Positions 6,375 through 64,000 of a DNA stretch of 64,000 nt are shown here, piece by piece. The position numbers and the translations under genes are program-made. Below the pieces are notes generated by a model. That model saw only the letters and a program-made list of their open reading frames with translations. It was not told where the DNA came from and did not search any database. The DNA comes from Microcoleus sp. (lineage in GTDB: Bacteria > Cyanobacteriota > Cyanobacteriia > Cyanobacteriales > Microcoleaceae), in assembly GCA_042408215.1 (NCBI GenBank), contig JAYFMW010000003.1:448001-512000 (forward strand), written 5' to 3'. Positions within the stretch are counted from its first letter, which is position 1, and every line of letters starts with the position of its first letter.

Positions 6375-6424
6375 CTTGCTCAAAATCGTTCAAAGAGTAG
6401 AGGCAAAGAGATAGATAATAGAAC

Positions 6425-9280: not shown

Positions 9281-9297
9281 ATGCTGCGAAACCAGAA

Positions 9298-10143: not shown

Positions 10144-10186
10144 CGGCAGTCAGTCTAAATAGAACTTGTGCGATTCCCAATATTCC

Positions 10187-11820: not shown

Positions 11821-12046
11821 AAAATCTTAGTCAATTCCTACATTTGAAAGGCTTGTATCTGCGTTGTTTTGCGAGATTGCGCTCTGCATAACACACATTT
11901 TGTATAGTTTAACCCGTGAGAGTGTAGGAAGTGCTGGAACTATCGGTATGTCAAGGATTTGAGACGCGCAGCGCTTGCAGTTTGGGGGATTTTTAGGGCA
12001 ACGCCAGGAGCCGATCGGGCGATAGCCATTAAGCGGACTCTACTGA

Positions 12047-12295
12047 TTAAGTTTTACCGCCAATCAATTTTAATTCATCCGCCGTGTAAACTGTCCGCTG
12101 GTAATCGCACCTCGACTCAACGCACTGCTCTATCCCGTCAACCGAAAGCATCCCTAGCAACGTTTTGCCACACTTAGGGCACCTTCTCAAAAAACATTTT
12201 GTTACCCAGACACCGCCGATATTGATTTGTCGTAAGTATGCACCGTGCCGCGCGTACTTTTTAGCGAGATTGTGTTCGATTGTTGCTGCTGACAT
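12047..12295 (-). CDS. Small Zn-ribbon protein
   Basis: CPKC ... CVESRC. Confidence 0.6.
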   Translation of the reverse strand: MSAATIEHNLAKKYARHGAYLRQINIGGVWVTKCFLRRCPKCGKTLLGMLSVDGIEQCVESRCDYQRTVYTADELKLIGGKT

Positions 12296-12332
12296 AAGAA
12301 CAGGGGATTCCCATCAGTTTGCGCGGCAGGAG

Positions 12333-12440
12333 TGATATCAAATCCGTTGGTATCGTCCTGTATTCATCTCTCTCTTCTCTTCCTCTGCGGTCTCTGCGGT
12401 CTCTGCGGTTTAATCATTCCGAAACAACCGTAAACGAGAG
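12333..12440 (+). repeat. Dispersed ~110-bp repeat; inverted relative at 54131-54240
   Basis: GATATCAAATCCG...CTCTGCGGTT(T/A)AATCATTCCG..ACAACC shared by both copies. Confidence 0.75.
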
Positions 12441-12718
12441 GACCAATGTTTCGACACTAATGAACAGAACCTCTATATTAGACATCTCCAAGAATTATAG
12501 CAGTTTTCAATCGGATGAAATACAGCAGACGGCTGTAGGGACACGACTGCCTGGTCACCTACCGGACATCTGTACTTCACTCAACTGAGAAATGCTATAT
12601 TGTGGAACAGGCCGGACAGCCTGTTCAAGACAGGCTGTTCTGGAGATGTCTATTCAAGTCAGTCGGCGTTGCCGATCATCCGCCAGACGCCGACTCCGGG
12701 AATCAATGCACAAAGGAC

Positions 12719-19734: not shown

Positions 19735-19995
19735 AATAGCTAAAGTCGGTTAAAACCGACTGAAGATTACCATTTTTAATCAGCTTTTCAGGGCGGGCTA
19801 GAAGCCCACCCCACAATAAAATTCAATTTTTGTGGAACAGGCTCTTGCTTGTGATTCTTTGTGGAACAGGCTCTTGCTTGCGATCGATATTGGTGCAGTT
19901 TTACACCCCAAGCGGATTCATGCTCAAAATATTATTTTAAATTATTTGAACCTTTTTTGAACTTGTCCTGTCTAAACCCCTCAGATAACGAACTG

Positions 19996-20604
19996 GTGAG
20001 GGAGACTTCACAGGTGTTAGGTGTGTCAGCCAATGTTTTAATCGATGACTGTTCCGACTCGGACTTAGTTGCTCAATGTTTAAAGGGCGATCGCACTTGC
20101 TTTCGCTACCTTTACCAACGCTACCAACACAAAGTCAGGTCAACCCTTTACCAACTCTGCGGGCCCTCACTTCTTGACGACTTAACGCAAGAAGTATTCC
20201 TGCGAGTCTGGAAAGGATTACCCAAACTCAAGCACCAAGACAACTTTTCTACTTGGCTTTATCGAATCACTTGGAATGTGGCTTCTAACCAAAGACAAGC
20301 ATTTGCTAAACAGCATTCTTTTGATTCCAAACTCAAAAATCAAGAAGAAATGGATCGGGTTATTGTCAAAGATAATACCTCGGACTTGATGCAGTTGCAC
20401 TATCAAGATTTAGTGCAGCGGGGATTGGAGCAATTGAGCTTTGAACACCGCAGCGTTTTGGTGCTGCACGACTTAGAAGACATCCCGCAAAAAGAAGTAG
20501 CCAAAATTTTGGGACTGCCGGCGGGAACTGTCAAATCTCGCGTGTTTTATGCCCGAAATGCTGTGCGAAAATTTTTGCAAAAAGAAGGTGTCCGCGAGCT
20601 ATGA
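19996..20604 (+). CDS. ECF sigma-70 factor (start uncertain)
   Basis: DDLTQEVFLRVW, FSTWLYRITWN, EVAKILGLPAGTVKSR. Confidence 0.92.
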   Translation: MRETSQVLGVSANVLIDDCSDSDLVAQCLKGDRTCFRYLYQRYQHKVRSTLYQLCGPSLLDDLTQEVFLRVWKGLPKLKHQDNFSTWLYRITWNVASNQRQAFAKQHSFDSKLKNQEEMDRVIVKDNTSDLMQLHYQDLVQRGLEQLSFEHRSVLVLHDLEDIPQKEVAKILGLPAGTVKSRVFYARNAVRKFLQKEGVREL

Positions 20605-21038
20605 ATAACCAAAGCAGCGACCAAGAGTTAGTTAATTTCTTGAAGCAATATCGCCCAAATCTTCCTGAAGCTGCGCCAGATTTAGAGCAAAAAATTTTAG
20701 CAACAATAGAAAGGAATGAGGAAGTAGAGAAAAAGCAAAATTACCTGGAAAAAGTGCGTTATATCGCATCTAACAACAGGTCAATTATTCCCGGTTTTCC
20801 CCAGTGGGCTTTCCCTCCTGCGATTGCAGCGACGCTGATAGTTTGCTGGTCTGGCTATCGCCTGCTAGTCCCCGCACAATTTAACCCGGATGAGGGGGCG
20901 CACCTAGAAGCATTTATAGTAAATAATTGGGAAGATGTATTGCAGGATTCTCACGGCGAAAATATGAGCGATCGCGCGCAAACAGACTGGTTTAATTTCG
21001 CTGTTACCGCTGACAGCGAACCGCCAACAACTCACTAA
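20601..21038 (+). CDS. Putative single-TM anti-sigma factor, copy 1
   Basis: ATGA overlap with the ECF sigma; one TM segment. Confidence 0.8.
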   Translation: MNNQSSDQELVNFLKQYRPNLPEAAPDLEQKILATIERNEEVEKKQNYLEKVRYIASNNRSIIPGFPQWAFPPAIAATLIVCWSGYRLLVPAQFNPDEGAHLEAFIVNNWEDVLQDSHGENMSDRAQTDWFNFAVTADSEPPTTH

Positions 21039-21057
21039 TTTCAAAGAGGTAATTTTC

Positions 21058-21543
21058 ATGTCAATTCGTCGCATTTCTGCCCTAGCCGTTTTAATGCTGA
21101 CTCTCGGCAGCACAACCGCAGCAATCGCAGTTCCCAATCCCATAGAACCGCAAACTGTTGCACAAAATCAGCGACCAAATCGACCTGGTGGTAAGGAAGG
21201 TGGGATGTTCGACAAACTTAATTTAAGCGCAGACCAAAAACAGAAAATGCAGGCAGTTCGCGATCAATATAAAGACCAAATTTCCCAGCGAATGCAAGCA
21301 GTGCGTCAAGCCAGACAAGAATTAAAAACTATGATGGCCGGCACGGCAAATGCCAGCCAAATGCGCGATAAACACCGTCAAATCATGGGATTGAGACAAC
21401 AGTTGGAAGATGTGCAATTTGAAAGTACACTGGCAATGCGAGAGCTACTCACGTCTGAACAGCGCAGCCAATTGGCTCAACTGATGCAGCAGCGGCAGCA
21501 AGCTGCCAAAAACCGGACGCCAAACGGCCCAAAACCACAGTAA
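21058..21543 (+). CDS. Spy/CpxP-family periplasmic chaperone, copy 1
   Basis: Signal peptide; LNLSADQ and LLTSEQR (LTxxQ) motifs. Confidence 0.9.
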   Translation: MSIRRISALAVLMLTLGSTTAAIAVPNPIEPQTVAQNQRPNRPGGKEGGMFDKLNLSADQKQKMQAVRDQYKDQISQRMQAVRQARQELKTMMAGTANASQMRDKHRQIMGLRQQLEDVQFESTLAMRELLTSEQRSQLAQLMQQRQQAAKNRTPNGPKPQ

Positions 21544-21775
21544 TTTAATGGGGAATTGGTAATGGGGAATTGGTAATCGGCGTGTTTTCTTTCCCCGGAG
21601 ATCCCCTAGCCCCCTTAATAAGGGGGGACAAGAGCGATCTTTCGTCACCCCCTACTCACACCCTACTCCCAAGGGTGCGGGGGATGCGAGGGGGTTCGAG
21701 ACTCGACTACAAGCGACATTTATTATGGGTCTTAAATCCTTTGTTAAGTAAGTCCTATTTAAGTTAAAATAATTA

Positions 21776-21877
21776 TAGGACTTACGCAAAAAAACCGGTT
21801 TCTGAGAAAATTCAGGCATCTCTGTGACAGATATTGACGTAGAAACCGGGTTTTTGGCCCCCAGTGCGTAAGTCCTA
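21776..21877. mobile_element. MITE-like element with TAGGACTTACGCA terminal IRs (second copy 23836-23937)
   Basis: 13-bp TIR plus an internal AAACCGG/CCGGTTT hairpin. Confidence 0.7.
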
Positions 21878-21908
21878 AATTAGTTGTAGATTTAATCAAA
21901 AACGCTTA

Positions 21909-22664
21909 ATGAATTTACCCAAAAATTCGAGTTACATTTATTTACACGGATTTGCTTCCAGTCCCGATTCCCTTAAGGGAAAATATTTCCGCGATCGCTT
22001 TTCTTCCCTAGCAATCGATCTGAAAATTCCCGATCTCAATCAAAATGATTTTTCTCGCCTCACCCTCACCCGCCAATTACACCAAATAGAAACAGCATTT
22101 TTGCAACCCCAAACCCTTCAAAATGTCAAAAAATCTGGTGAAGTCACAATAATTGGGTCGAGTTTTGGGGGGCTGACAGCGGCTTGGTTAGCCCAGCGAC
22201 AATTATCAGTAAAACAAATAGTTTTGCTAGCACCAGCTTTTCAATTCCTGTCTCACTGGCTGCCGCTGTTGGGACAGCAACAGTTAGAAAAGTGGCGGTC
22301 TGAGAAATATTTACCCGTTTACCACTCCCGCGAACAGCGCGATCTGCCGCTGAATTATCAGTTTGTGGTCGATCTGGATCAATACCCTGAACAAAAATTA
22401 ATGCGAGCGGTGCCTACGTTAATTATCAAAGATAATACCTCGGACTTGATGCAGTTGCACTATCAAGATTTAGTGCAGCGGGGCTTGGAGCAATTGAGCT
22501 TTGAACACCGCAGCGTTTTGGTGCTGCACGACTTAGAAGACATCCCGCAAAAAGAAGTAGCCAAAATTTTGGGACTGCCGGCGGGAACTGTCAAATCTCG
22601 CGTGTTTTATGCCCGAAATGCTGTGCGAAAATTTTTGCAAAAAGAAGGTGTCCGCGAGCTATGA
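21909..22664 (+). CDS. Chimera: YqiA-like esterase N-part fused in frame to ECF sigma region 4
   Basis: YLHGFASS and GSSFGG, then ...VPTLI|IKDNTSDLMQ...GTVKSR; created by the duplication junction. Confidence 0.85.
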   Translation: MNLPKNSSYIYLHGFASSPDSLKGKYFRDRFSSLAIDLKIPDLNQNDFSRLTLTRQLHQIETAFLQPQTLQNVKKSGEVTIIGSSFGGLTAAWLAQRQLSVKQIVLLAPAFQFLSHWLPLLGQQQLEKWRSEKYLPVYHSREQRDLPLNYQFVVDLDQYPEQKLMRAVPTLIIKDNTSDLMQLHYQDLVQRGLEQLSFEHRSVLVLHDLEDIPQKEVAKILGLPAGTVKSRVFYARNAVRKFLQKEGVREL

Positions 22665-23098
22665 ATAACCAAAGCAGCGACCAAGAGTTAGTTAATTTCT
22701 TGAAGCAATATCGCCCAAATCTTCCTGAAGCTGCGCCAGATTTAGAGCAAAAAATTTTAGCAACAATAGAAAGGAATGAGGAAGTAGAGAAAAAGCAAAA
22801 TTACCTGGAAAAAGTGCGTTATATCGCATCTAACAACAGGTCAATTATTCCCGGTTTTCCCCAGTGGGCTTTCCCTCCTGCGATTGCAGCGACGCTGATA
22901 GTTTGCTGGTCTGGCTATCGCCTGCTAGTCCCCGCACAATTTAACCCGGATGAGGGGGCGCACCTAGAAGCATTTATAGTAAATAATTGGGAAGATGTAT
23001 TGCAGGATTCTCACGGCGAAAATATGAGCGATCGCGCGCAAACAGACTGGTTTAATTTCGCTGTTACCGCTGACAGCGAACCGCCAACAACTCACTAA
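22661..23098 (+). CDS. Putative anti-sigma factor, copy 2
   Basis: Identical to 20601..21038. Confidence 0.8.
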   Translation: MNNQSSDQELVNFLKQYRPNLPEAAPDLEQKILATIERNEEVEKKQNYLEKVRYIASNNRSIIPGFPQWAFPPAIAATLIVCWSGYRLLVPAQFNPDEGAHLEAFIVNNWEDVLQDSHGENMSDRAQTDWFNFAVTADSEPPTTH

Positions 23099-23117
23099 TT
23101 TCAAAGAGGTAATTTTC

Positions 23118-23603
23118 ATGTCAATTCGTCGCATTTCTGCCCTAGCCGTTTTAATGCTGACTCTCGGCAGCACAACCGCAGCAATCGCAGTTCCCAATCC
23201 CATAGAACCGCAAACTGTTGCACAAAATCAGCGACCAAATCGACCTGGTGGTAAGGAAGGTGGGATGTTCGACAAACTTAATTTAAGCGCAGACCAAAAA
23301 CAGAAAATGCAGGCAGTTCGCGATCAATATAAAGACCAAATTTCCCAGCGAATGCAAGCAGTGCGTCAAGCCAGACAAGAATTAAAAACTATGATGGCCG
23401 GCACGGCAAATGCCAGCCAAATGCGCGATAAACACCGTCAAATCATGGGATTGAGACAACAGTTGGAAGATGTGCAATTTGAAAGTACACTGGCAATGCG
23501 AGAGCTACTCACGTCTGAACAGCGCAGCCAATTGGCTCAACTGATGCAGCAGCGGCAGCAAGCTGCCAAAAACCGGACGCCAAACGGCCCAAAACCACAG
23601 TAA
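23118..23603 (+). CDS. Spy/CpxP-family protein, copy 2
   Basis: Identical to 21058..21543. Confidence 0.9.
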   Translation: MSIRRISALAVLMLTLGSTTAAIAVPNPIEPQTVAQNQRPNRPGGKEGGMFDKLNLSADQKQKMQAVRDQYKDQISQRMQAVRQARQELKTMMAGTANASQMRDKHRQIMGLRQQLEDVQFESTLAMRELLTSEQRSQLAQLMQQRQQAAKNRTPNGPKPQ

Positions 23604-23968
23604 TTTAATGGGGAATTGGTAATGGGGAATTGGTAATCGGCGTGTTTTCTTTCCCCGGAGATCCCCTAGCCCCCTTAATAAGGGGGGACAAGAGCGATCT
23701 TTCGTCACCCCCTACTCACACCCTACTCCCAAGGGTGCGGGGGATGCGAGGGGGTTCGAGACTCGACTACAAGCGACATTTATTATGGGTCTTAAATCCT
23801 TTGTTAAGTAAGTCCTATTTAAGTTAAAATAATTATAGGACTTACGCAAAAAAACCGGTTTCTGAGAAAATTCAGGCATCTCTGTGACAGATATTGACGT
23901 AGAAACCGGGTTTTTGGCCCCCAGTGCGTAAGTCCTAAATTAGTTGTAGATTTAATCAAAAACGCTTA

Positions 23969-24646
23969 ATGAATTTACCCAAAAATTCGAGTTACATTTA
24001 TTTACACGGATTTGCTTCCAGTCCCGATTCCCTTAAGGGAAAATATTTCCGCGATCGCTTTTCTTCCCTAGCAATCGATCTGAAAATTCCCGATCTCAAT
24101 CAAAATGATTTTTCTCGCCTCACCCTCACCCGCCAATTACACCAAATAGAAACAGCATTTTTGCAACCCCAAACCCTTCAAAATGTCAAAAAATCTGGTG
24201 AAGTCACAATAATTGGGTCGAGTTTTGGGGGGCTGACAGCGGCTTGGTTAGCCCAGCGACAATTATCAGTAAAACAAATAGTTTTGCTAGCACCAGCTTT
24301 TCAATTCCTGTCTCACTGGCTGCCGCTGTTGGGACAGCAACAGTTAGAAAAGTGGCGGTCTGAGAAATATTTACCCGTTTACCACTCCCGCGAACAGCGC
24401 GATCTGCCGCTGAATTATCAGTTTGTGGTCGATCTGGATCAATACCCTGAACAAAAATTAATGCGAGCGGTGCCTACGTTAATTATGCACGGCCTGCATG
24501 ATACAATAATACCGATTCAAGCTAGCAGAAATTTTGCCGCTAACCGTCCCTGGGTGCAATTAATCGAACTAGAAGATGACCATTCTTTGGGAAATTTCCT
24601 AGCAGAAATTTGGGAAGCGATTCAAAAGTTTTGCCAATTCAACTAA
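23969..24646 (+). CDS. YqiA/YcfP-family alpha/beta hydrolase, intact
   Basis: HGFASS, GSSFGG, HGLHD, DDHSL. Confidence 0.9.
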   Translation: MNLPKNSSYIYLHGFASSPDSLKGKYFRDRFSSLAIDLKIPDLNQNDFSRLTLTRQLHQIETAFLQPQTLQNVKKSGEVTIIGSSFGGLTAAWLAQRQLSVKQIVLLAPAFQFLSHWLPLLGQQQLEKWRSEKYLPVYHSREQRDLPLNYQFVVDLDQYPEQKLMRAVPTLIMHGLHDTIIPIQASRNFAANRPWVQLIELEDDHSLGNFLAEIWEAIQKFCQFN

Positions 24647-52476: not shown

Positions 52477-53016
52477 TACCAATTTAATGGGTCGTTGCAC
52501 AGATCTCGATCCCCCTAAATCCCCCTTAAGAAGGGGGACTTTGAGAAGAATCTTGTCCCACCCTTATTAAGGGGGGCTGGTAATACCAATTTAATGGGTC
52601 GTTGCACAGATCTCGATCCCCCTAAATCCCCCTTAAGAAGGGGGACTTTGAGAAGAATCTTGTCCCACCCTTATTAAGGGGGGCTGGTAATACCAATTTA
52701 ATGGGTCGTTGCACAGATCTCGATCCCCCTAAATCCCCCTTAAGAAGGGGGACTTTGAGAAGAATCTTGTCCCACCCTTATTAAGGGGGGCTGGTAATAC
52801 CAATTTAATGGGTCGTTGCACAGATCTCGATCCCCCTAAATCCCCCTTAAGAAGGGGGACTTTGAGAAGAATCTTGTCCCACCCTTATTAAGGGGGGCTG
52901 GTAATACCAATTTAATGGGTCGTTGCACAGATCTCGATCCCCCTAAATCCCCCTTAAGAAGGGGGACTTTGAGAAGAATCTTGTCCCCCCCTTATTAAGG
53001 GGGGCTAGGGGGGATC
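52472..53016 (+). repeat. 107-bp tandem repeat x5
   Basis: Units start at 52472, 52579, 52686, 52793 and 52900; each holds a CCCCCTTAAGAAGGGGG hairpin. Confidence 0.96.
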
Positions 53017-53071
53017 AGATTCTATGCAGCCTCATAAAAAATTGGTATAAGCTAAAAATCATCGTCCTGGA

Positions 53072-53343
53072 CGCACTCTAACCCAAGAAACCGGGTTTTT
53101 TGTGAGAATACTGGTTATAGCCTTTAATATCGGTAAAAACCCGGTTTCTGACCACCCCGCACTCTAACCCAAGAAACCGGGTTTTTTGTGAGAATACTGG
53201 TTATAGCCTTTAATATCGGTAAAAACCCGGTTTCTGACCACCCCGCACTCTAACCCAAGAAACCGGGTTTTTTGTGAGAATACTGGTTATAGCCTTTAAT
53301 ATCGGTAAAAACCCGGTTTCTGACACCCCGCACTCTAACCCAA
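53072..53343 (+). repeat. 86-bp tandem repeat x3 plus a partial copy
   Basis: Units at 53072, 53158 and 53244; internal AGAAACCGGGTTTTT / AAAAACCCGGTTTCT IR. Confidence 0.95.
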
Positions 53344-53476: not shown

Positions 53477-53959
53477 ATGGCAGAAGTTGAAGTTCTTGTA
53501 GAGAGTTTGTGGGAACTTGATGAGGATCAGCTAGAAGCTCAGCTAGGCGATCGTGCACAAGCCATAGGGGATGATGTTGCTGGACGTGGAGCAAAAGGGG
53601 TAGACCCAGCTTCCTTGGAATCTATTGATGTCAACGTTGCGGCTAGAGCATCCATCGATCCAAGATTGCTAGATGCTGGTCGCCAGCTTTTCGATCGCAT
53701 AAACCCCTTAGCTTACGAACTTATGTGCAAACCCCTCGGTGGAGACAATGCAGAGACTCAGAAGATTTTAGATGAAACAATCAATCAGAACTATACCAAA
53801 GCGGCTGGGATGTTGGCTCCTGTTTTAGTCAGTGGACTTGGGTTAGCTCCTGTCCTTGCTACTCTTCTTGCAACTTTAATTATCAAAAAGATTGCAAATA
53901 CGGGTGCTACAGCAATTTGCGAGACTTGGGAGAAAACTTTAGCAAAACCCGCAAGCTGA
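53477..53959 (+). CDS. Hypothetical protein: acidic N-part and C-terminal hydrophobic helical hairpin
   Basis: 160-aa ORF with GGAGA RBS; AAGMLAPVLVSGLGLAPVLATLLATLII. Confidence 0.85.
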   Translation: MAEVEVLVESLWELDEDQLEAQLGDRAQAIGDDVAGRGAKGVDPASLESIDVNVAARASIDPRLLDAGRQLFDRINPLAYELMCKPLGGDNAETQKILDETINQNYTKAAGMLAPVLVSGLGLAPVLATLLATLIIKKIANTGATAICETWEKTLAKPAS

Positions 53960-54291
53960 GTTATTTACAAAGATTGGTAATACAGTCCTGGACGCACTCC
54001 GACTCCTCGAAACCGGGTTTTTTACCAAATCTGCGCGCTGTAACGCATCTTCTCGCAAAAAACCCGGTTTCTGACCACCCGTGCGTCTAGGAGTATCATA
54101 AAAACTCTGTGAGGCGATCGCACTTTTGTACTCATATCGTTTCTGGTTGTACCGGAATGATTTAACCGCAGAGAACACAGAGGACACAGAGGGAGAGAAT
54201 AGAGATCTGAATAATTCCGATGCTACCGGATTTGATATCAGAGGTTTTGTCGGGCGATCGCACTTATCTACCCATATTTGCTGCTACGGCG

Positions 54292-57200
54292 TTAAAAACT
54301 TTTATCTTTTCCAACTACTTTTGGCACATCGTCGCATAGGCGGCGATCGCTCTTACTAACATTGGGGTTATTCTGCAAATAGTCACGCACGCGATCGCAA
54401 CCTTGTTCCAGTAGTTCATCGATTCCTCCTATCCGCCACAACTTAGCAGTGCCGTCCTTGCCAAGAGTAGCCATTAAGTTGCCATCAGCACTAAGACTTA
54501 TATTAGTGACTTCGCCTTGATGTTGAGCTTTGAAAGTAGTCAATAATTTTCCTGACATATCCCATACATGGATATCAGAGATAGCATCGCCGCCCACACC
54601 GATGTTCGCACTAGCTAATAAGTTACCCTGAGTATTAAGACCGATACTATTGAATGTGTTCCCAGCACCTTTAAACTTAACTAATTCCTTTCCTATCCCA
54701 GCCCCCAATTCACTTAAGAAGATATTGCCTCGATCTTGTGGGAACAAGTCGGTAGGTAGTGAATTCGCCACTAACAGCCTGCCATCGGAGCTAAAACCAA
54801 TAATACGCCTAGTTTCACCCAACTTATCGTTAGGACTTACCTTGTCGGGCAAGATTTCCCAGGTTTTATTATTCAAATTAAACAGATGGATAGTACCATC
54901 ATTCTCCACGACAGCCAATTGCTTACCATCAGGACGAAAAATAAGCTGGCTAATTGTTTTTTCAAAATTTCGGGATTTATACAACTCCTTCCCATTCGTG
55001 TCCAACAGGCGAATCGTACTATCTTTACCAACTGCCGCCAATTGCTGACCATCAGGGCTAAAAATGATTTGACTAATTTTGCCTTGAAAATCTACAAATC
55101 GCTTCAACTCATTAGCATTCAAATCCAACAGACGGACAGTGCCATCACTCTCTAAAACAGCTAGTTGCTTACCATCTGGACTGATGCTGATACTTATTAA
55201 GTTCGGAATTTTGCTTAACTCTACCACTGGCTTGTTCTCTATTTCCCACAAGCGAATGGTATGATCGTTACCTCGACTCGCAACTTGTCTGCCATTAGAG
55301 CTAGAAATAACCTCACGAATACTACCTTGATGGCCTTTAAGTTCAAATTGCAATGCTTGAGACAAACTTGATTTAATCGAAGAAGGATCATAAACATCAA
55401 TAATACCATCACCCTCTTGACCGATAATCAGATGACTACTGGCATCAAAAATGATACTTGAAGCTCTGCTTATACGTGTAAAATCATTCCACGATTTATC
55501 ATCTAAACTTCCAAAGTACGCACTACTCATGTCCGCTCCAAAGTCAGCTGCCAAGTGTTGACCATCAGGGCTGAAAACGAGATTGCCAAATAATGTCAAG
55601 TGAAAATTTTTGAACTCCGCCAACTTCTTCCCCGACACAAAGTCTGACAAGCCGAGGGTATCGTTAGATTGGGTAGCTACAACTAGCTGGTTGTTGGAGT
55701 TAAAGCTAATACTACTGAAATTGTCTTGAGATTTTTTTAATAGCTTTGGTTCACTTTCCGATAAGTTCCACAGGTAGATAGTCATTGCATAACCCGTCTT
55801 AATTCCCCCATTTACATAGGCTACAAGCTGCTTACCATCAGGACTGAACCTGAGCCCACGGTCATATACATGGGAATATGTAGACTGTGGAATAGAGGCT
55901 ACAAACTTTGGTGGCTCTTCTTGTTTTCCTTCTGAGTTCCACAGGCGAACTGTCCCTTGCTCGTCAATGGTTGCTAATAAGCGACCATCCCGATCAACAT
56001 CAAGTGTTACTTTACCTTTATGTCCTGAAAATACTTTGGATAGTTTTTGTCCATTCAAGTCTTGTAAGCGGACAATACCATCATTTCCTGCTGTAGCAAT
56101 CAGTAACGTACCATCAGGCGTAAAAAACATCTTATTCAAGTCTTGAGGCACTTCTATGCGGTTACGTTCTTTAGCTACATAGAATACCTTTCGCAAAGTT
56201 TGTAACACTTGAGGTTGAAGCTCAGTGTCTGGTTTTAAAAATGGTAGCTTACTTTCTGGCTTGAATAAGGATAAGTATCCAGGCCAATCTTTAAGATATT
56301 TCTGTGCTCGTAAGCTATCAAGCAACGCATTTAACTCTTGGTTGGGTAAGTTTGCTTCTGCGGATAGTCTAGTAGCCCTGATTTGACCTATCAGTGCATT
56401 TCTCTCTCCAATCAAAGAAAATACTAAACCTGTACCTAACCCCAGCATTACGCCTAATGCAATGCTCCAATTCCGACGAGTATTAAAGCTTTTTCGCCCG
56501 ACACTGCGCCGCACAAACTCCGCTTCTAATTTGTTCAGCCAGTTGTCCTGGGAATTGAGCTCCTTTTTGAGCAAATCAAGACGTGGGTTAGCATTCCAGA
56601 GATATTCTGCCTGTTGCTGGCTTTCCCACTCTTCAGCGGCAGGTGTCAACCGCCGTTGCAAAAGTAAACTCTCTTCATTCTCCTGTTTCCACCTCAGCAG
56701 CTTTTCCCACCCCCGCACCAAAGCATCATGGGCCGGTTCCACATAGGGATTCCCCTCCGCATCTTGCCCTTTCACTAACAACCTGGCTGTGCTAAAATGC
56801 TCAATTACTTCTTTAACTAAACTATTTCGATCGGGCGGATATTCCAATTCCGATAACGGGACTTGTCTACGCGCTAACTCACCCCCACCCAGGGCTACCA
56901 TCCGCAACATCACATCACGAATAACGTGGCTATAAGCTGGATTTTCTTGAACTAGCACCTGATATTCCTCATCAGCTCTTTGAGTCAGTGATAGGATTAC
57001 TCCTCCCAAGTCTTGATAATCTTCTTGAGTCAGCGCCCGGTCAATTGTTATACCTTCGTTTCCTGCATCCCATTGTCGCTTTAAATACTTGAGATAAAGT
57101 TCGCTCAAAGCAAAAGACAGCAGGGGCAATGCTCCCGGCATATCCGCCACTTCATTAATTAATTGTTCTACTAAATCGTGGGGTTGAAAATACATTACCC

Positions 57201-58734
57201 GTGTTTCTGCGGGTTTCTCAATCGCTTCCCTCAAATCCTTTCGTGTCATCGCGGGGACCATAAATCGTCCGTTGAGCCAACGACCTTTAAGCACTGTATT
57301 TCCTACGTTATAGCCTGTGGGGATAAACTGTAAGCCAGCATCTCTAACTTGGGCTTCAAAGTCAGAACGTAGGCTTAACACTACCCGTAATTTATCCCGA
57401 TGGGCGTTAATTGCTTTAAGTATTTGTTGGAAAAATTCCTTGCGCTCATCCTCATCTTGACAGAGTGTAATTATCTCTTCGCTTTGATCGATAAAGATTA
57501 ATAACTGGGAATTGGGATGATTTTTAGCCAAAACCGCAATACTTTGACTCAGAGTTTTTTGTTTATTTTGTAATTCAATTTTGGGTAATTGGGCATCAAC
57601 AAGGGCATTATTCAAGGCTTGAAAAGGTGTTTCTCCGGGGCGGATTGGTGATATAATACACCATTTGTCGCTTTTTTCCTGTTTCAATTTAGGAATTAAT
57701 CCGGCTTTTACCAAACTGGATTTACCTGAACCCGAAGCACCCAAAACCACTGTTAGAGGATTAGTTTTGACAATATTTTGTAACTTTTCTATTAGTTCGT
57801 TTCTACCGAAAAACAGTTTGTTGTGTTCCTCTTCAAACGGTAACAAGCCGCGATAGGGATTTTTGGAAACATCTAATGGTGGTGCTGGAGGTAGATTTAG
57901 CGCGTGTCCTGGTGTCAGGAAAATGTACTCGCCTTTATCGTGTTTTTTGAGGGAATGAATCCCTGGCGTCTGACGGATCGCACGAGCTTCTGTGGCAATT
58001 TCAATGCGATCGCGCAAATACACATAGAGATCGGTTGCCGTAATTACACCATCTCCCGCAGGCTTACCGGGTGCTGCTGGTGGAAAAGCATCGGCTTTAC
58101 CCTCAAGTGCTTCTATCAACGCATAAGCAAAGGGTGAATGGCTTCCAATTTGTCCGCGATCGTCTTTCAGGTTAAAAGCATCCCATGCAGATTGATCGTG
58201 GGAAGCCGAAGTTAGAACTTGCCATGCTGGGTCTTGAATGAAGCGATCGTAGCGTTCTTTGTGGATCGTACCTAGTTCGATCGGAATCGCTTTGCGTAGA
58301 CTTGACCAGCGAAAAGCACCCGCAAAACAACAGTCAAGAATACCTAAAAAGTGACGACAGGGAAGTTGAAGCAAGGCTTTATTCACCTCTGACATCGGCA
58401 GGTAAGTGCTAACATTGCCCAAGCGAGCACCTGGAGGAATCAGATAGCCTTCGGGGCCATCCTCGCCATTGAGAGCAATCCCATGTCCAGCATAGTAGAA
58501 AAGAAAGCGATCGCCCTTTTGAATTTGTTGTGGCAATTCTATCTCTAATACCTGCCGAAGTTGGCTGAGGTTAGCTGCTTGATTCAGCAGCAGAGTAACA
58601 TCGTAATGATGCTCGGTTTCGAGGATACGAGCGATTTCTGTCGCATCACTGACAGCAGTTTTAAGTGAAGAAATACCGTTGTTGTAGTCGTCAATGCCAA
58701 TGATTAGGGCGTAGCTGTGTTCAAAGTTTGACAT
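54292..58734 (-). CDS. Caspase-family (C14) protease + STAND NTPase (nSTAND1-like) + TM + WD40 repeats
   Basis: YYAGHG and LDCCFAG dyad; NPYRGL, GASGSGKSS, FIDQSEE, LPLL; TM WSIALGVMLGLG; GH..WD repeats. Confidence 0.93.
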   Translation of the reverse strand: MSNFEHSYALIIGIDDYNNGISSLKTAVSDATEIARILETEHHYDVTLLLNQAANLSQLRQVLEIELPQQIQKGDRFLFYYAGHGIALNGEDGPEGYLIPPGARLGNVSTYLPMSEVNKALLQLPCRHFLGILDCCFAGAFRWSSLRKAIPIELGTIHKERYDRFIQDPAWQVLTSASHDQSAWDAFNLKDDRGQIGSHSPFAYALIEALEGKADAFPPAAPGKPAGDGVITATDLYVYLRDRIEIATEARAIRQTPGIHSLKKHDKGEYIFLTPGHALNLPPAPPLDVSKNPYRGLLPFEEEHNKLFFGRNELIEKLQNIVKTNPLTVVLGASGSGKSSLVKAGLIPKLKQEKSDKWCIISPIRPGETPFQALNNALVDAQLPKIELQNKQKTLSQSIAVLAKNHPNSQLLIFIDQSEEIITLCQDEDERKEFFQQILKAINAHRDKLRVVLSLRSDFEAQVRDAGLQFIPTGYNVGNTVLKGRWLNGRFMVPAMTRKDLREAIEKPAETRVMYFQPHDLVEQLINEVADMPGALPLLSFALSELYLKYLKRQWDAGNEGITIDRALTQEDYQDLGGVILSLTQRADEEYQVLVQENPAYSHVIRDVMLRMVALGGGELARRQVPLSELEYPPDRNSLVKEVIEHFSTARLLVKGQDAEGNPYVEPAHDALVRGWEKLLRWKQENEESLLLQRRLTPAAEEWESQQQAEYLWNANPRLDLLKKELNSQDNWLNKLEAEFVRRSVGRKSFNTRRNWSIALGVMLGLGTGLVFSLIGERNALIGQIRATRLSAEANLPNQELNALLDSLRAQKYLKDWPGYLSLFKPESKLPFLKPDTELQPQVLQTLRKVFYVAKERNRIEVPQDLNKMFFTPDGTLLIATAGNDGIVRLQDLNGQKLSKVFSGHKGKVTLDVDRDGRLLATIDEQGTVRLWNSEGKQEEPPKFVASIPQSTYSHVYDRGLRFSPDGKQLVAYVNGGIKTGYAMTIYLWNLSESEPKLLKKSQDNFSSISFNSNNQLVVATQSNDTLGLSDFVSGKKLAEFKNFHLTLFGNLVFSPDGQHLAADFGADMSSAYFGSLDDKSWNDFTRISRASSIIFDASSHLIIGQEGDGIIDVYDPSSIKSSLSQALQFELKGHQGSIREVISSSNGRQVASRGNDHTIRLWEIENKPVVELSKIPNLISISISPDGKQLAVLESDGTVRLLDLNANELKRFVDFQGKISQIIFSPDGQQLAAVGKDSTIRLLDTNGKELYKSRNFEKTISQLIFRPDGKQLAVVENDGTIHLFNLNNKTWEILPDKVSPNDKLGETRRIIGFSSDGRLLVANSLPTDLFPQDRGNIFLSELGAGIGKELVKFKGAGNTFNSIGLNTQGNLLASANIGVGGDAISDIHVWDMSGKLLTTFKAQHQGEVTNISLSADGNLMATLGKDGTAKLWRIGGIDELLEQGCDRVRDYLQNNPNVSKSDRRLCDDVPKVVGKDKSF

Positions 58735-58773
58735 ATAGCGAGCCTAAAAAATTTGTAAGAGTTTGTAGGGGTA

Positions 58774-59396
58774 GGCCCCCGTGCATTGGTTGGTGTCAAC
58801 AAACAGGTTAAATGCACTCACAGACTGCTGTTTAACCGTTAGATCTAGATCCCCCCTAGCCCCCCTTAAGAAGGGGGGGACTGGAAGTGGTCAAAGTCAA
58901 CCCCTACTCCCCTTTTTCAGGGGGCGGAAGTGGTCAAAGTCAACCCCTACTCCCCTTTTTCAGGGGGCGGAAGTGGTCAAAGTCAACCCCTACTCCCCTT
59001 TTTCAGGGGGCGGAAGTGGTCAAAGTCAACCCCTACTCCCCTTTTTCAGGGGGCGGAAGTGGTCAAAGTCAACCCCTACTCCCCTTTTTCAGGGGGCGGA
59101 AGTGGTCAAAGTCAACCCCTACTCCCCTTTTTCAGGGGGCGGAAGTGGTCAAAGTCAACCCCTACTCCCCTTTTTCAGGGGGCGGAAGTGGTCAAAGTCA
59201 ACCCCTACTCCCCTTTTTCAGGGGGCGGAAGTGGTCAAAGTCAACCCCTACTCCCCTTTTTCAGGGGGGGACTGGAAGTGGTCAAAGTCAACCCCTACTC
59301 CCCTTTTTCAGGGGGATTTAGGGGGATCTCGACTCGGCTATAAGCGAGATTTATCAAAGTTTTTAGGCTGGTTGTTGACACCAATGGCCCCCGTGC
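58774..59396. mobile_element. MITE of the GTGTCAAC/GTTGACAC family in a REP-like site, expanded by an internal tandem repeat
   Basis: Flanking direct repeat GGCCCCCGTGC at 58774 and 59386. Confidence 0.8.
58883..59315 (+). repeat. 43-bp tandem repeat x10, no spacers
   Basis: GGAAGTGGTCAAAGTCAACCCCTACTCCCC...CAGGGGGC units, head to tail. Confidence 0.96.
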
Positions 59397-59450
59397 CTAC
59401 CCTGTATCCTCTGGGGCGATCGCAGGTGAATAGCCCCATTGACAAAACAC

Positions 59451-61583
59451 CTATCGCGTGAGTGTGATTTTAATCTCCTTCGTTGTCCACTCCTGACTCG
59501 GATCGAAAATTGCTGTTGCACGATAACCCGGAATTTCTGGTTGAGTATCAACATCAGCACCAACCGCAGCCAGAAGTTGTCCAAGTGGATTCTCACCACG
59601 GGGTAGTGTTGCTGATTTTTGGTCGATTTCTTGATCGAGTGAGGGCAACTCCAGCCAACGAAAATCATTCGGTTTGACCGTCGCAAAAACTTTCAAAGTT
59701 TCGGCGCCTTTGGAAGATTTTCCATGATCCGGGAGCTTGATTTGAAGCGGAATTAACATTTCTTGATTGGGATCGAATGGATAAAAAATCCCCTCTGGTA
59801 TTTGGAGTTGAATGCGGGAAACCGCCCAGTTTGATTCGAGATCCAGCACAGCAACATTCAAAACTTGAGAGTAAGTATTTTTAATTCGCAAGAATGCGTA
59901 CTCACCAGATTTAACAACTAAATTAGTCGGGTCGGGAAATGGCTGCGGTTTTTTAGGCATCCCTGGTTGCCAGTTTGGTTGTGTGAGTAATTCCACCTCT
60001 AGCTTGTTGGTCAAATCAGAAAATTGATTGCTCAACTGTTGAATCGCCTGATATTTTACTAAATGTACCAATCGTTTCACTACTTTTTGTGGAGCATCAG
60101 AATCCTCAATCTTTAACGCAGGTGTGAGGTTTTCGATCGGTGTACCAATGCAAATCTCATACTCCCCTTTTTGATTAACCGCAACTTGATAATCTTCCTT
60201 TTGTTGTGCATCCACCAGTTTCAACCAGCCATTTCCTGCCAGTGCTGCCTCGACTGCCTTCAATGCAGCATCTTCCTGCTCCTTAATAGCTTGATTCAGT
60301 TGATTGTCTTTCTCACCAACCTCTTTTTTGAAAAGGCGTACTCCCCGTACCAAATCAACAGGGGCTGATAGCATCACTGCTTGAGAACCTTGATCAATCT
60401 TGTCCTGACGTAGCACTTCAATTACATCTGCCCAGGCATCAGAAGCACCAACTTTTGTAATCTCAACGATCGCCACTTGCTGGTTTTTCTGGGTAAAATC
60501 TGTCGTGCCAAACCCATAGATTGCGAAGCGATAACCTGGACTGAGACCGTTTTCCATCCCTGCATCCAGCCGGACTTGTTTGGGGATTTTCTTCGGTTCT
60601 GAGCCTGCCTCAGTGACTTCTTCCTCAATTACTTCAAGCACATTCACAGCATATTGTAAAGATCCGCGCTCAACTCCGAAGACAAAGCGATCGCTCTCGC
60701 CCACCAGCATTGGCATCTGCTGAGGGAACTTGCTTTGAATTTTCGCACTGATGCGATCGTGCAATGTTTTGTACGTCAATCCTGAAGGGCTACTGGTTAA
60801 GGTATCAATCATCCAGTACGTCAGCGCCCCATGTCGCTCCTTACCACTCACCGTATACTCTAAGGCATACTCGCTAGGACGACAAGCAGCTAGCAATACA
60901 TAATCTTTAGATTGAGGCAGCCAGTGCCCAGGGGTAATACTTGCAGCCGTTTCATCAGTCAGAGTCTGCCAGTTTTCGATCAGCTCTTGTCGCGAAGCCA
61001 CCAAGCTTTCCGAGTCTCGGGGTGCTGTGTCGATTTCTCCAATTCCTCGAATTGCAACATCGTCGCCACGAGTTGCTTCTCCAGAGTGACAGCTATCCAT
61101 AATAACTGTGACAATCAACCCTTTGTCCGTCATCCGCTTCAACAGTGTCGCCAATTCCACATCGCGCAGGTAGCGCCCTCCTTCATTGCCAACATCCATT
61201 GGTACAATACCTTCATCAGGTTGGTCATTCCCCTTCAGTTCTGGATAGATGGTTGTCATCCGTCCTCCATGTCCAGAATAGTGAATGTAAACCTGCTCTC
61301 CTGGTTGAGCTATTTCTGTAATGGCATGAAACTGCGCCACAATGTTTTCATAAGTGGGTTCTGGGTATTTGGTTGCGATCGTTTCAGCGACTTCAGGATT
61401 CGGAGAAGTCAGCTTGAAAATCTTTTCAGAAGGAATCTTCAGTGTCTCTAAGAGGTAGCTTGCTACAAGATTGATGTCACCAAAGCATCCTTTAAGATTC
61501 TTGTACAACCGATTCGGCTGATAGCCGTCAATGCCAATTAATAAAGCGTAAATGTTCGGTGTTTGTTCAGATTTGTCAGTCAT
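59451..61583 (-). CDS. Caspase-family (C14, metacaspase/orthocaspase-like) protease with a long C-terminal region
   Basis: ALLIGID, LKGCFGD, HYSGHG, MDSCHSG, LAAC, HGALT. Confidence 0.92.
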   Translation of the reverse strand: MTDKSEQTPNIYALLIGIDGYQPNRLYKNLKGCFGDINLVASYLLETLKIPSEKIFKLTSPNPEVAETIATKYPEPTYENIVAQFHAITEIAQPGEQVYIHYSGHGGRMTTIYPELKGNDQPDEGIVPMDVGNEGGRYLRDVELATLLKRMTDKGLIVTVIMDSCHSGEATRGDDVAIRGIGEIDTAPRDSESLVASRQELIENWQTLTDETAASITPGHWLPQSKDYVLLAACRPSEYALEYTVSGKERHGALTYWMIDTLTSSPSGLTYKTLHDRISAKIQSKFPQQMPMLVGESDRFVFGVERGSLQYAVNVLEVIEEEVTEAGSEPKKIPKQVRLDAGMENGLSPGYRFAIYGFGTTDFTQKNQQVAIVEITKVGASDAWADVIEVLRQDKIDQGSQAVMLSAPVDLVRGVRLFKKEVGEKDNQLNQAIKEQEDAALKAVEAALAGNGWLKLVDAQQKEDYQVAVNQKGEYEICIGTPIENLTPALKIEDSDAPQKVVKRLVHLVKYQAIQQLSNQFSDLTNKLEVELLTQPNWQPGMPKKPQPFPDPTNLVVKSGEYAFLRIKNTYSQVLNVAVLDLESNWAVSRIQLQIPEGIFYPFDPNQEMLIPLQIKLPDHGKSSKGAETLKVFATVKPNDFRWLELPSLDQEIDQKSATLPRGENPLGQLLAAVGADVDTQPEIPGYRATAIFDPSQEWTTKEIKITLTR

Positions 61584-61615
61584 TTTTAATTCATTGCTCC
61601 AGTGTCTTTTATCGG

Positions 61616-62098
61616 GTAGGGACACTCCAAAAGCCCATAGGTGTCAACTTAAGGTCAAACCCAGTCAGAGACTGTTGTTTGACTATTAAATCTAGATCCC
61701 CCCGCATTCTTGCCCCCTACTCAACCCCTACTCCCCTTAAGAAGGGGGGGACAAGAGTCTTCTCAAAGTCCCCCTTCTTAAGGGGGATTTAGGGGGATCT
61801 AGACTTAGGTAAAAACCAGATTTCTCAGGGCTTTCAGGCTTAAGTTGACACCAATGGGCAGTGCCCATTAGTGTCAACTTAAGCTCAAACCTAGTCACAG
61901 ATTGCTGTTTGACTATTAAATCTAGATCCCCCCGCATTCTTGCCCCCTACTCCCCCTTAAGAAGGGGGGGATAAGAGTCCGATCAAAGTCCCCCTTCTTA
62001 AGGGGGATTTAGGGGGATCTAGACTTCGCCTAAAAGCGACATTTATTATGGGTTTTAGGCTTAAGTTGACACCAATGGGTCCGGCGCCGTGTCCCTAC
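61616..62098. mobile_element. Two head-to-tail copies of the GTGTCAAC-TIR MITE inside one GTAGGGACAC...GTGTCCCTAC palindrome
   Basis: TIR pairs near 61640/61850 and 61870/62070. Confidence 0.78.
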
Positions 62099-62116
62099 AG
62101 ATCGATCGCGAATACA

Positions 62117-63031
62117 TCAAGCCATTTGTGCGCGGGTTTTGACAGCGACAATTCCGTCTGGCTTCAACCCCTTTTTCTGCTGAAATTCCTTGACGGCTTT
62201 ATCTGTTGCCGGCCCAAATTCACCATCAGCCCCAACTGCAACGCCAGCCTTTTTCAAGCCTTCCTGAAGCTTGAGGACATCCGAGCCTTCCATTCTGGGC
62301 ATCGCTAAGCGCAACGTTCTGGGTTTGTTATCCCACGGCGCTTTAGGAAACCCTGGAGCCGGAGAGCGATTAAGTGCACCCTCGGTTTGCGGGCCAAAGC
62401 CGCCATCCTCGCTAATCTTTGCATTAGGATTGTTCTGATTCCAAAGCTGCTGAAATGCGAGTATTGATGTACTGCGAAGATCGATCGTGCCCCCGCCTTG
62501 GTAGTCGAAGTGAGGTGGATCGTTCGGTAATGGATTCCAGCCATACCGCATTAAATAAGGTTCCCAGCCTAGGGCATCTTCAATGTCGATCGCTAACCCA
62601 GTTTGGTGGTTGCTGGTTCCTGGTGCAGCTACAGGATTAGAGTTGTTGAAGCGATCGTTATACAGCAACATTTGTTGGGCGATCGTGCGGTAAGCAGAGT
62701 TCACCTGCATCGTTTGACCTCGATCTTGAATCGCTCTCTGGAGTGCCTGTTTTGCAGGGGCTTGTACATAGGGAAAGGCTGCATCCAGCAAGTCTACATT
62801 CAGGTCATCAAAACTGACAAAAGCATCTGGCATCATCAGTTGCATTTGATAAATTAACTGCTGGGATAAGCCATTGACCACCGCAGTCGAAGACATGGGT
62901 GCATCTCGGAGCAATCCGGGGAAACTGCCTTTAATTTCCAACATATCCCGTTGGACAAATTCTGCACAGGCTTCGACAATTACAGGTTGATTAAATAGAA
63001 TATCGCTTGAGTCAGTCATGGTTTTCTCCAA
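62117..63031 (-). CDS. M15 (VanY-like) Zn peptidase with peptidoglycan-binding domains
   Basis: NSAYRT..QQ, APGTSNHQTGLAID, DPPHF; DGxFGPxT repeats. Confidence 0.88.
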   Translation of the reverse strand: MEKTMTDSSDILFNQPVIVEACAEFVQRDMLEIKGSFPGLLRDAPMSSTAVVNGLSQQLIYQMQLMMPDAFVSFDDLNVDLLDAAFPYVQAPAKQALQRAIQDRGQTMQVNSAYRTIAQQMLLYNDRFNNSNPVAAPGTSNHQTGLAIDIEDALGWEPYLMRYGWNPLPNDPPHFDYQGGGTIDLRSTSILAFQQLWNQNNPNAKISEDGGFGPQTEGALNRSPAPGFPKAPWDNKPRTLRLAMPRMEGSDVLKLQEGLKKAGVAVGADGEFGPATDKAVKEFQQKKGLKPDGIVAVKTRAQMA

Positions 63032-63158
63032 TTAGTTTGAATTTGGTCATTCCTGGATTCACAAACTCTATCTCTAGGGCGATGCACACCGCACCTTACC
63101 CCCACAGATCTTGTAACAATTGCTTGATTGCGTAATTTAAATTGTTACAAAATCGATT

Positions 63159-64000
63159 TTATAGTCCCAATTTTTTGAGAGTTTGGGCCCCGACAACACC
63201 ATCCGCCGTTAGCCCTTTTTGCTTTTGAAAAAGCCGCACAGCACTATCGGTGTCTTTGCCAAAGAATCCATCTGGTTCGATATTGATTCCTGCTGTTTTC
63301 AAAGCTTCTTGTACTTGACGAACATCCTCACCTTGCATCATGGGTTCGGTGAGTTTCAAAGTGCGAGGTGCTTCTGAGATTGTTTCACCTGTTACTTCTT
63401 TGCCTGTTCCTTCATAGGTTAAGAATGACTGCCAGGGTTTTCCCAAAAACAGTGCTCGTTCAGCCAATCGTCGGCGTGTCAGCCCTAGCCAGGGTTGACC
63501 ATTTACCTTATTCCACACAGGAAACTGATTGGCTGCTCCTTGATAATCTCCGTTGTTCAACAGCTTCAGAAGAGTTGAACCTCCAAAACCTTTTCTTCCT
63601 GGGCCGACGTTGAAGCAGAAACAAACCAGTGCAGAAAACTGATTGTCATTGAGCTGAAATTCAACCGCATCCTCAACATAGGATTCAAATTTTTCTAAAT
63701 CTCCGCTCAGCAATTCTTCTGCTTGCGTTTGGCTAATGGTCATTCCTGGAAACACATCATTACCAGTGTGTCCGTAACCAATTGTCAAAACTCCACCGCC
63801 ATCATCATAGGCAGTTAGTACACATCCTTCAAAGGTAGTTAGAAGCTTGAAACCTGCTTGATTGATGTGTCTTGAACCTCTGCGTCCTGCTACATCAGGC
63901 GGTTGTTTGTCTGGAGGAGCAATGTTGTATGTTTTAGCCACGCTGAACCGTAAAGCATCAATTAATGTCTCTATGTCTCCATTAGTTTCGGTAACTTTAA
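63159..64000 (-). CDS. GH24 lysozyme + PG-binding domain; N-terminus runs off the window
   Basis: FEGCVLTAYDDGGGVLTIGYGHT, FNVG, GLTRRRLAE; the frame is open from 63998 (KVTETNGDIETLIDALRFSVAK). Confidence 0.92.
   Translation of the reverse strand, partial: KVTETNGDIETLIDALRFSVAKTYNIAPPDKQPPDVAGRRGSRHINQAGFKLLTTFEGCVLTAYDDGGGVLTIGYGHTGNDVFPGMTISQTQAEELLSGDLEKFESYVEDAVEFQLNDNQFSALVCFCFNVGPGRKGFGGSTLLKLLNNGDYQGAANQFPVWNKVNGQPWLGLTRRRLAERALFLGKPWQSFLTYEGTGKEVTGETISEAPRTLKLTEPMMQGEDVRQVQEALKTAGINIEPDGFFGKDTDSAVRLFQKQKGLTADGVVGAQTLKKLGL

Follow-up and report, generated by a model that had tools for sequence, protein, structure and literature searches.

Why should a cyanobacterial chromosome carry, side by side, two caspase-fold proteases, two cell wall hydrolases and a small protein with a hydrophobic hairpin? 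The question is raised by five genes at the end of a 64,000-nucleotide stretch of Microcoleus sp. DNA (GenBank assembly GCA_042408215.1, contig JAYFMW010000003.1, positions 448,001 to 512,000 of the forward strand), which is referred to here as the window and whose own numbering is used throughout. An earlier note on this DNA had suggested that a sensor caspase triggers proteolysis and so releases a membrane-permeabilizing protein and wall hydrolases, either for abortive infection or for the breakage of filaments. By comparing related loci and predicting structures we establish below that the five genes are a mobile chromosomal cassette whose members travel together, and that three of the five proteins carry N-terminal leaders ending in the same type of basic-small dipeptide. 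Our reading is that the cassette is a caspase-gated self-lysis module, probably for abortive defence of the filament, with a probability that we place at roughly 0.55.

Gene Arrangement

The five genes and the short segments within them that matter for the argument are as follows, where aa stands for amino acids, TM for transmembrane and PG for peptidoglycan.

53477..53959, (+) strand: gene of the 160-aa protein, convergent with the four co-oriented (-) strand genes
53645..53650, (+) strand: R57-A58 dipeptide of the 160-aa protein, a basic-small pair before the helical core and a candidate caspase site
54292..58734, (-) strand: Caspase(C14)-nSTAND1-TM-WD40 gene, 1480 aa, the predicted sensor and initiator
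59451..61583, (-) strand: gene of a free-standing metacaspase-like C14 protease, 710 aa, the predicted executioner
62117..63019, (-) strand: gene of an M15 zinc peptidase with a PG-binding domain, 300 aa (Pfam, intact zinc motifs)
62930..63019, (-) strand: acidic leader of the M15 peptidase, 30 aa, ending K30-G31, a candidate cysteine-switch propeptide
63159..64000, (-) strand: in-window part of the gene of a GH24 lysozyme with a PG-binding domain, 301 aa (Pfam, catalytic pattern)
63879..64000, (-) strand: in-window part of the 62-aa lysozyme leader, folded and ending R61-R62-G63

These five open reading frames (ORFs) and their arrangement are as first described. The likely starts are ATG 63019 for the M15 peptidase and ATG 61583 for the free caspase (the ORF itself has 724 aa), and the lysozyme most likely starts at an ATG 64 bases past position 64000 (L001 11159-12064). 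The earlier note was right about the lysozyme gene, but the start lies outside the window, so that the folded leader domain could not be seen whole. Each of the five genes is present in one copy in this genome, bar distant paralogues of the NTPase and caspase domains, and the closest named homologues are from Microcoleus, which is filamentous. No signal peptide is evident in the M15 peptidase, as had been said before, nor in the lysozyme or the free caspase; in all three the hydrophobic segments score 1.07 or less on the Kyte-Doolittle scale.

Leaders Ending in a Basic-Small Dipeptide

Three of the proteins, namely the lysozyme, the M15 peptidase and the 160-aa protein, have an N-terminal leader that closes with (R/K)-(G/A/S) where the core begins; the free caspase carries the same basic-small motif behind its catalytic Cys. 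Leaderless M15 relatives and phage lysozymes begin at the point of the leader/core junction, and their neighbourhoods lack a caspase gene. A longer shared motif, D-V-A-x-R-G, was also considered and fails across homologues; only the basic-small dipeptide holds.

The lysozyme belongs to GH24 (PF00959, E 5e-45) and its fold matches that of 9kbs (Z 21.6, root-mean-square deviation 2.0, 143 residues aligned), with an intact E-x8-D-x5-T pattern in which E79, D88 and T94 are invariant. Its leader is modelled as a compact beta-beta-beta-alpha-beta domain of 62 residues (predicted local distance difference test score, pLDDT, 79-88) whose end, R61-R62-G63, falls three residues before the start point of phage GH24 enzymes. 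Among leader-bearing lysozymes [RK][GAS] is found at 30/30 distinct junctions, and a C14 or CHAT gene accompanies 26 of these 30, while the loci of the remaining four stop close to a contig edge. Identity between the GH24 domain and phage enzymes is 50-62%. A set of 80 viral loci gave 55 distinct GH24 enzymes, 37 of them with 12 or fewer extra residues; no leader, C14, CHAT or 160-aa gene was found in any of the 80. The leader was not found within longer proteins, which is a weak test, and fold searches with the lysozyme model returned matches to the GH24 domain, leaving the leader fold barely probed.

The M15 peptidase (PF02557, VanY, above the Pfam cut-off) has intact zinc motifs, SNHQxGLAxD and DPPH, and S136, H138, D145 and H170 are invariant in 15 sequences. 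C18 is the sole invariant residue of the leader besides the Met, and the only Cys in the window protein. Our survey of M15 enzymes comprises 83 rows, some loci having been fetched twice, 6 of them fragments without a clear placement; 56 rows have an acidic, Cys-containing leader with [RK][GA], and 21 have no such leader. Of the latter, 18 begin 10-18 residues ahead of the anchor, two carry another domain and one has an unclear start, and they come from several families and other gene contexts. A C14 or CHAT gene lies within 2.1 kb in 51 of the 56 leader-bearing rows (of the remaining five, four run into a contig edge) and in none of the 21 leaderless rows, 19 of which have at least 3 kb on both sides. 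Since the M23 peptidase LytM is kept latent by a zinc-binding residue of its propeptide (PMC4594094), it is a reasonable inference that the M15 leader is a candidate propeptide of the cysteine-switch kind. Prediction of the complex of leader residues 1-30 with the core and zinc gave a score of 0.11 against a mark of 0.32, with the leader fold uncertain, and is not evidence either way. Viral matches to the M15 enzyme are distant only. Separately, a single hotspot in genomes of the same genus (L154, L155, L157, L151) was seen to hold leaderless M15 genes within clusters, variable in make-up, of wall hydrolases without signal peptides; no caspase is present there.

In the 160-aa protein residues 1-57 have a net charge of -10 and the remainder a charge of 0, with candidate cut sites at K40-G41 and R57-A58. 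A hydrophobic helical hairpin at about 106-142 reaches a hydropathy of 2.16 in a 19-residue window, in keeping with the acidic N-terminal part and long hairpin noticed earlier. Of five models the best (pLDDT 82, against 39-51 for the rest) is all-helical, the hairpin helices spanning 106-121 and 125-142, and in an alignment of 54 diverse family members C84, C148 and W151 are invariant. The motif [RK][GAS] occurs 5-14 residues ahead of G68 in 202/206 distinct close-family sequences, against a background of 0.16. A profile search collected 482 clusters of the family at 50% identity. The family was not found in viral contigs. Neither Pfam nor NCBIfam has a family for the protein, Pfam scans of 21 and of 54 members gave the same result, and in these searches there was no match to the EACC1 domain (Pfam, 21 and 54 members) or to the Pepco/Trypco, CATASP, alpha/beta-hydrolase or MBL effector families. 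A profile search of the PDB was negative, and Foldseek returned globins only, at E 0.18 or worse. Saposin-like and EntV folds listed for the model (Z 3.4-3.9) were set aside as noise-level. A gasdermin-type effector, given in the earlier note as an example of what bacterial caspases activate, is disfavoured by the all-helical prediction; gasdermins are also absent from the fold-search listings, which cannot exclude a family. From its anatomy and context we predict that the 160-aa protein is a membrane effector.

The same arrangement is seen when the hydrolase is exchanged. M74 zinc peptidases replace M15 in other cassettes (L109, L163), with a leader Cys and an S-R-G junction, and C39-like enzymes in the hydrolase slot (L042, L043, L136, L180) have a leader with R-G ahead of the catalytic domain. 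Astacin-type and M23 peptidases were also noted near 160-aa family genes (L081 249-1313, L137 8164-9429, L111 8848-11001), the two astacins having N-terminal extensions with Cys and R-G or R-S motifs; judging from these sequences the zymogen code may extend to further enzymes such as astacins.

The proteolytic gating of effectors proposed in the earlier note thus gains shared junctions and leaderless controls that have no caspase neighbours, with cleavage itself still a prediction. Because the shared leaders end in a conserved Arg-Gly-type motif, their removal by the caspases is likely. We consider it highly probable that the caspases cut at the junction sites, and fairly probable, with somewhat less assurance, that the leaders act as inhibitors of the 160-aa protein, the M15 peptidase and the lysozyme.

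The Two Caspases

According to Pfam the 1480-aa protein consists of a C14 domain (8-261), nSTAND1 (293-709; PF20703, E 3.8e-104) and WD40 repeats, and C14 exceeds the PF00656 cut-off in both proteases. The catalytic dyads of the two (H84/C136 in the STAND caspase, H105/C165 in the free caspase, numbered from ATG 61583) and the Walker A motif GASGSGKSS are intact, as claimed before, and AGHG and DCC motifs are present in homologues of the STAND caspase. A TM-like helix lies at 758-776 (Kyte-Doolittle 2.07). Across 11 close homologues of the STAND protein, identity is 82-91% in the caspase domain, and the C-terminal parts are 23-40% identical or unalignable; to judge by the sequences, a conserved caspase part joined to a divergent C-terminal propeller resembles what is seen in diversifying sensors. 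No PDB sequence match was obtained for the N-terminal half of this protein.

The closest PDB relatives of the free caspase are metacaspases, and H105/C165 align with the dyad of the yeast enzyme, as do D36 and D163 with the aspartates of its GCxND and DSCHSG motifs. The equivalents in TbMCA2, Asp95 and Asp211, are acidic S1 residues for Arg or Lys at P1 (PMC4357240). Candidate acidic S1 residues of the STAND caspase are D30 and D134, by motif only. All 40 distinct homologues of the free caspase have Arg at the IR[GSR] position, and the free caspase keeps the GCxxD and D-x-C aspartates; the TRG...IRG motifs of the window protein lie behind the catalytic Cys. These S1 residues, together with a published Lysobacter defence caspase that cuts a hydrolase zymogen at R-G motifs (bioRxiv 10.1101/2025.11.14.688446), lead us to infer specificity for cleavage after Arg or Lys. 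R-G sites in the C-terminal region of the free caspase (∼400 aa, DUF4384-like as a lead only) were considered as cut sites and dropped, not being conserved among homologues. The PADLOC model 'caspase' (PDLC02987) matches the free caspase with E 2e-41, and both caspases fall well below the cut-off of the EACC1-type caspase model NF047832 (65.5 and 18 bits versus 140).

Linkage and Distribution

Linkage was assessed in 98 loci, corresponding to 79 distinct core sequences, of which 37 have at least 3 kb on both sides. Conservation of the neighbourhood across cyanobacteria, which the earlier note had named as a check, is strong, with gene fusions in addition: a C14 or CHAT gene lies within 3 kb of the 160-aa gene in 35 of the 37 well-flanked loci, where the chance of such a neighbour is roughly 0.04 from the gene density of the genome itself, and in the remaining two a C14 gene is 5.5 and 8.5 kb away. 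Where both flanks reach 9 kb or more (20 loci) the partners found are C14 (15), the nucleoside triphosphatase (NTPase; 11), M15 (10) and lysozyme (11), with all partners in five, and the full five-gene set is present in 17 of the 79 distinct loci irrespective of flank length. Among 14 longer family members that were scanned, the 160-aa domain is fused to C14 in two (P0251, P0256), to CHAT in two (P0265, P0271) and to a phage-type lysozyme in one (P0150); a fusion to an M15 peptidase occurs at one metagenome locus (L140).

The 160-aa gene is present in 13/36 genomes of the same genus, 1/24 others of the order and 14/401 of the phylum. Of the same 401 genomes 13 have the lysozyme leader, all of them within the 14 that have the 160-aa gene, and these are kin and not independent. 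The genes that flank the cassette differ from genome to genome and its gene order is rearranged; it is also present in Argonema, Microseira, Stenomitos and the genome G040.

Several further observations concern the family and its surroundings. GH19-CHAT fusion proteins lie immediately upstream of 160-aa family genes in L134 (3-2285) and L135 (441-3050). In L146 (6764-10051), a metagenome contig of non-cyanobacterial appearance, a distant homologue (31%) without the Arg site stands just behind a 928-aa CHAT protein. Intergenic tandem repeats, read by eye, lie around and inside the window's cassette at 52480-53340, 58880-59310 and 61630-62060, made up of ∼5 copies of a ∼111-bp unit, 3 of a ∼85-bp unit and ∼11 of a 38-bp unit, with CCCCC..GGGGG hairpin elements; hairpin/repeat elements of this type are found genome-wide in contigs of relatives. 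The caspase, M15 and lysozyme genes are covered by contigs from RNA libraries of relatives, the 160-aa gene only in part and the propeller to a small extent; such contigs say nothing on transcription, strand or operon structure.

Proposed Mechanism and Alternatives

The self-lysis module that we favour would operate as follows. The variable propeller would sense an invader or damage to the envelope, possibly from the periplasm, where helix 758-776 may place it. The NTPase would then cluster the initiator caspase, as is general for STAND proteins, and the initiator would activate the free caspase at the R-G loop of the latter. In the step that is best founded the executioner would strip the leaders from the 160-aa protein, the M15 peptidase and the lysozyme at Arg/Lys-Gly/Ala sites, after which the helical protein, once liberated, would breach the inner membrane, and the hydrolases, which lack signal peptides, could reach and digest the wall. 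For three components, namely the initiator-executioner order of the two caspases, pore formation by the 160-aa protein, and triggering by a phage or another invader, we put the odds in each case slightly above even. A bolder version of this scheme makes the cassette a host-encoded, caspase-triggered counterpart of phage holin-endolysin lysis, in which an NLR-like initiator caspase activates an executioner that unlocks, through one R-G code, interchangeable hydrolase zymogens, a cysteine-switch M15 peptidase and a pro-lysozyme among them, the 160-aa protein is the first of a widespread new family of helical pore-formers, and the filament excises an infected cell, wall included; this we offer tentatively, regarding it as possible and a good deal less secure.

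A number of points weigh against these proposals. At several loci the hydrolases are missing beside the 160-aa gene and proteases, or the 160-aa gene is missing beside hydrolases and a caspase, and since either can be absent a strict dependence of the holin-endolysin type is not universal. A cytoplasmic lysozyme would need no latency to spare the wall of its own cell. The invariant Cys pair of the 160-aa protein suggests, from the alignment, a disulfide and hence work outside the cytoplasm, and in fold searches the model does not match known pore formers to a meaningful degree (the best Z, 5.0, is for a ribosomal L29-like hairpin). The junction motif is present in only 35/116 distant sequences of the 160-aa family, near background; other proteases may act there, or the claim may be limited to the cyanobacterial clade. 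One leader-bearing M15 gene, in L150, is a true orphan without an adjacent caspase. Finally, the leader label changes only three times on a tree of 28 non-redundant M15 cores, so that the correlation with caspase genes rests on few independent events, and this tree leaves room for a single origin of the leader.

One alternative is an outward weapon, where the proteases would mature the hydrolases and the helical protein for release on cell death against neighbours, competitors or predatory bacteria, and not against the wall of the producer. Latency makes most sense for enzymes that meet PG outside the cell, the invariance of C84, C148 and W151 is as expected for a disulfide, the effectors differ by locus (GH24, M15, M74, C39-like, GH19), and the TM helix ahead of the propeller could place the sensor in the periplasm. 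Against this, signal peptides are not evident, the loci examined have no recurring secretion or immunity genes, and the STAND/caspase sensors of published systems kill their own cell, so that we judge such a weapon unlikely.

Somewhat less likely again is that the 160-aa protein is not a pore but a caspase regulator (an inhibitor, adaptor or decoy substrate), with leaders that serve as docking or export tags. The gene accompanies caspase-fold proteases even where hydrolases are missing and is fused to both C14 and CHAT, the lysozyme leader is a compact folded domain, and a cleavable caspase inhibitor, PCi, is known in the SAVED-CHAT/PCaspase system (bioRxiv 10.1101/2023.06.23.546230). The genome also has a tail-sheath locus, but it is separate and on another contig; moreover, a helical hairpin of such hydropathy suits membrane insertion, and the leaders stop at precisely the point where free-standing relatives naturally begin, and their presence follows that of caspase genes.

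Filament breakage in development (necridia, hormogonium release), the second option of the earlier note, is in our view improbable. It would fit with closest named homologues in filamentous Microcoleus, with the consideration that digesting the wall of one cell would break the trichome and, short of proof of transcription, with the coverage of caspase, M15 and lysozyme genes in RNA-library contigs. A core programme should, however, be stable, whereas the cassette is patchy even within the genus, occupies several insertion sites, has swapped sensor domains and includes some broken copies. Decayed prophage lysis genes that stand beside caspases by chance, for which the likeness of the GH24 domain to phage enzymes might speak, deserve almost no weight, being contradicted by the linkage and fusion data, the conserved catalytic residues, the want of phage-like flanking genes, the failure to find the 160-aa family in viral contigs and the count of 0/80 viral lysozyme loci with leader or caspase.

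Caspase homologues of cyanobacteria have for many years been linked to programmed death, with no dedicated substrates known. The cassette names three candidate substrates with cut sites at the level of residues, turning the question into one of a cleavage assay. Further, with its large size, its lack of a name and its link to proteases of the caspase fold, the 160-aa family is a candidate new death effector well beyond cyanobacteria.

Other Features of the Window and Genome

No phage structural or packaging genes were recognized in the block, as the earlier note had said, or among the ORFs that flank it in the window or just beyond. From their translations we take the ORFs past the window end to be pilus (PilC/PilT/PilB) and chaperone (GrpE, DnaK, DnaJ) genes. 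At 19861-24646 there is a ∼2.06-kb tandem duplication, with two copies of an identical 161-aa ORF (21058 and 23118) and, at 21909-22664, an ORF that is a chimera of esterase and sigma factor; the duplication is either recent or an assembly artefact. An unannotated ORF cluster at 188-14455 includes an integrase-like ORF (11230-11820), a C39-like peptidase-like ORF (2890-3396) and a 578-aa ORF (12719-14455), and is presumably a mobile-element remnant; similar ORFs flank a leaderless M15 gene in L156. The tail-sheath gene referred to above has tube/VgrG-like neighbours (L187, G000:C30:546000-557100), and the locus is possibly a contractile injection system.

Comparison with Known Systems

Like bacterial gasdermin-caspase systems, the present cassette has a protease of the caspase type next to a small protein that is a candidate for acting on membranes. 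Gasdermins are rich in beta structure and their inhibitory peptide is C-terminal; the 160-aa protein, unlike them, is predicted to be all-helical and has its leader at the N-terminus. Phage holin-endolysin cassettes differ in that the genes considered here are chromosomal, without phage genes and, by prediction, caspase-gated, and in that phage GH24 relatives have no leader.

A further possible likeness is to the PADLOC candidate system PDC-M35, a protease-effector pair in which PDC-M35A, a trypsin-like protease, adjoins PDC-M35B, a protein of ∼150 aa. PADLOC models of PDC-M35B weakly match 24 of 27 unfused members of the 160-aa family (E 1e-10 to 5e-3), in collinear alignments along the C-terminal two thirds, with a score of only E 0.01 for the window protein; reciprocal hidden Markov model and hhalign tests between the two families were negative, and PDC-M35A has no match on the contig of the cassette. 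The protease class is different, and the two PDC-M35 loci that were read have no hydrolases. In these loci, from two same-genus genomes (L276 2188-3425, L277 2652-3895), the trypsin-like protease is followed by a small hydrophobic-hairpin protein with a Phd/YefM-like tail. PDC-M35 is not named in the main text of the PADLOC candidate preprint.

Closest in logic are published modules in which a caspase fused to STAND/beta-propeller sensors is encoded next to a latent effector, caspase-alpha/beta-hydrolase and caspase-EACC1 (bioRxiv 10.1101/2025.11.14.688446; PMC7159879). EACC1 contains beta strands and forms pores once its N-terminal part is removed (bioRxiv 10.1101/2025.11.14.688446), and both this removal and the R-G motif of the published hydrolase system are paralleled by the candidate leaders and junctions described above. 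The differences are that the effectors here are PG hydrolases and an all-helical protein without EACC1, Pepco or hydrolase Pfam match, and that a single motif is common to two caspases and as many as three effectors. A two-protease initiator-executioner cascade has been published for SAVED-CHAT/PCaspase (bioRxiv 10.1101/2023.06.23.546230), which resembles the scheme proposed here in having two caspase-fold proteases per locus, several downstream substrates and an abortive outcome. The sensor here is nSTAND1-TM-WD40 rather than SAVED, no CRISPR link was seen, and the predicted substrates are wall hydrolases and a hydrophobic protein as opposed to a sigma factor, an inhibitor and a kinase.

In the full-text literature that we searched, a scope that leaves aside subscription journals and supplements with gene neighbourhoods, neither caspase-activated PG hydrolases nor the 160-aa family are described. 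The preprint of Evans (bioRxiv 10.1101/2025.11.14.688446) mentions PG-binding sensor domains once and neither lysozyme nor the cell wall, and passages of PMC8195603 and PMC3482391 hold nothing closer to the cassette. Lysozyme and papain-like wall peptidases are given as EAD1-linked effectors in a trypsin-NucA system in PMC7159879. The logic of the cassette, then, is that of known protease-effector defence modules, and its effectors are other than those described. The targets of known protease-gated effectors in defence are DNA or membranes; if our reading is true, caspase-activated wall-hydrolase zymogens would constitute a new effector class and a route by which one cell is removed from a filament.

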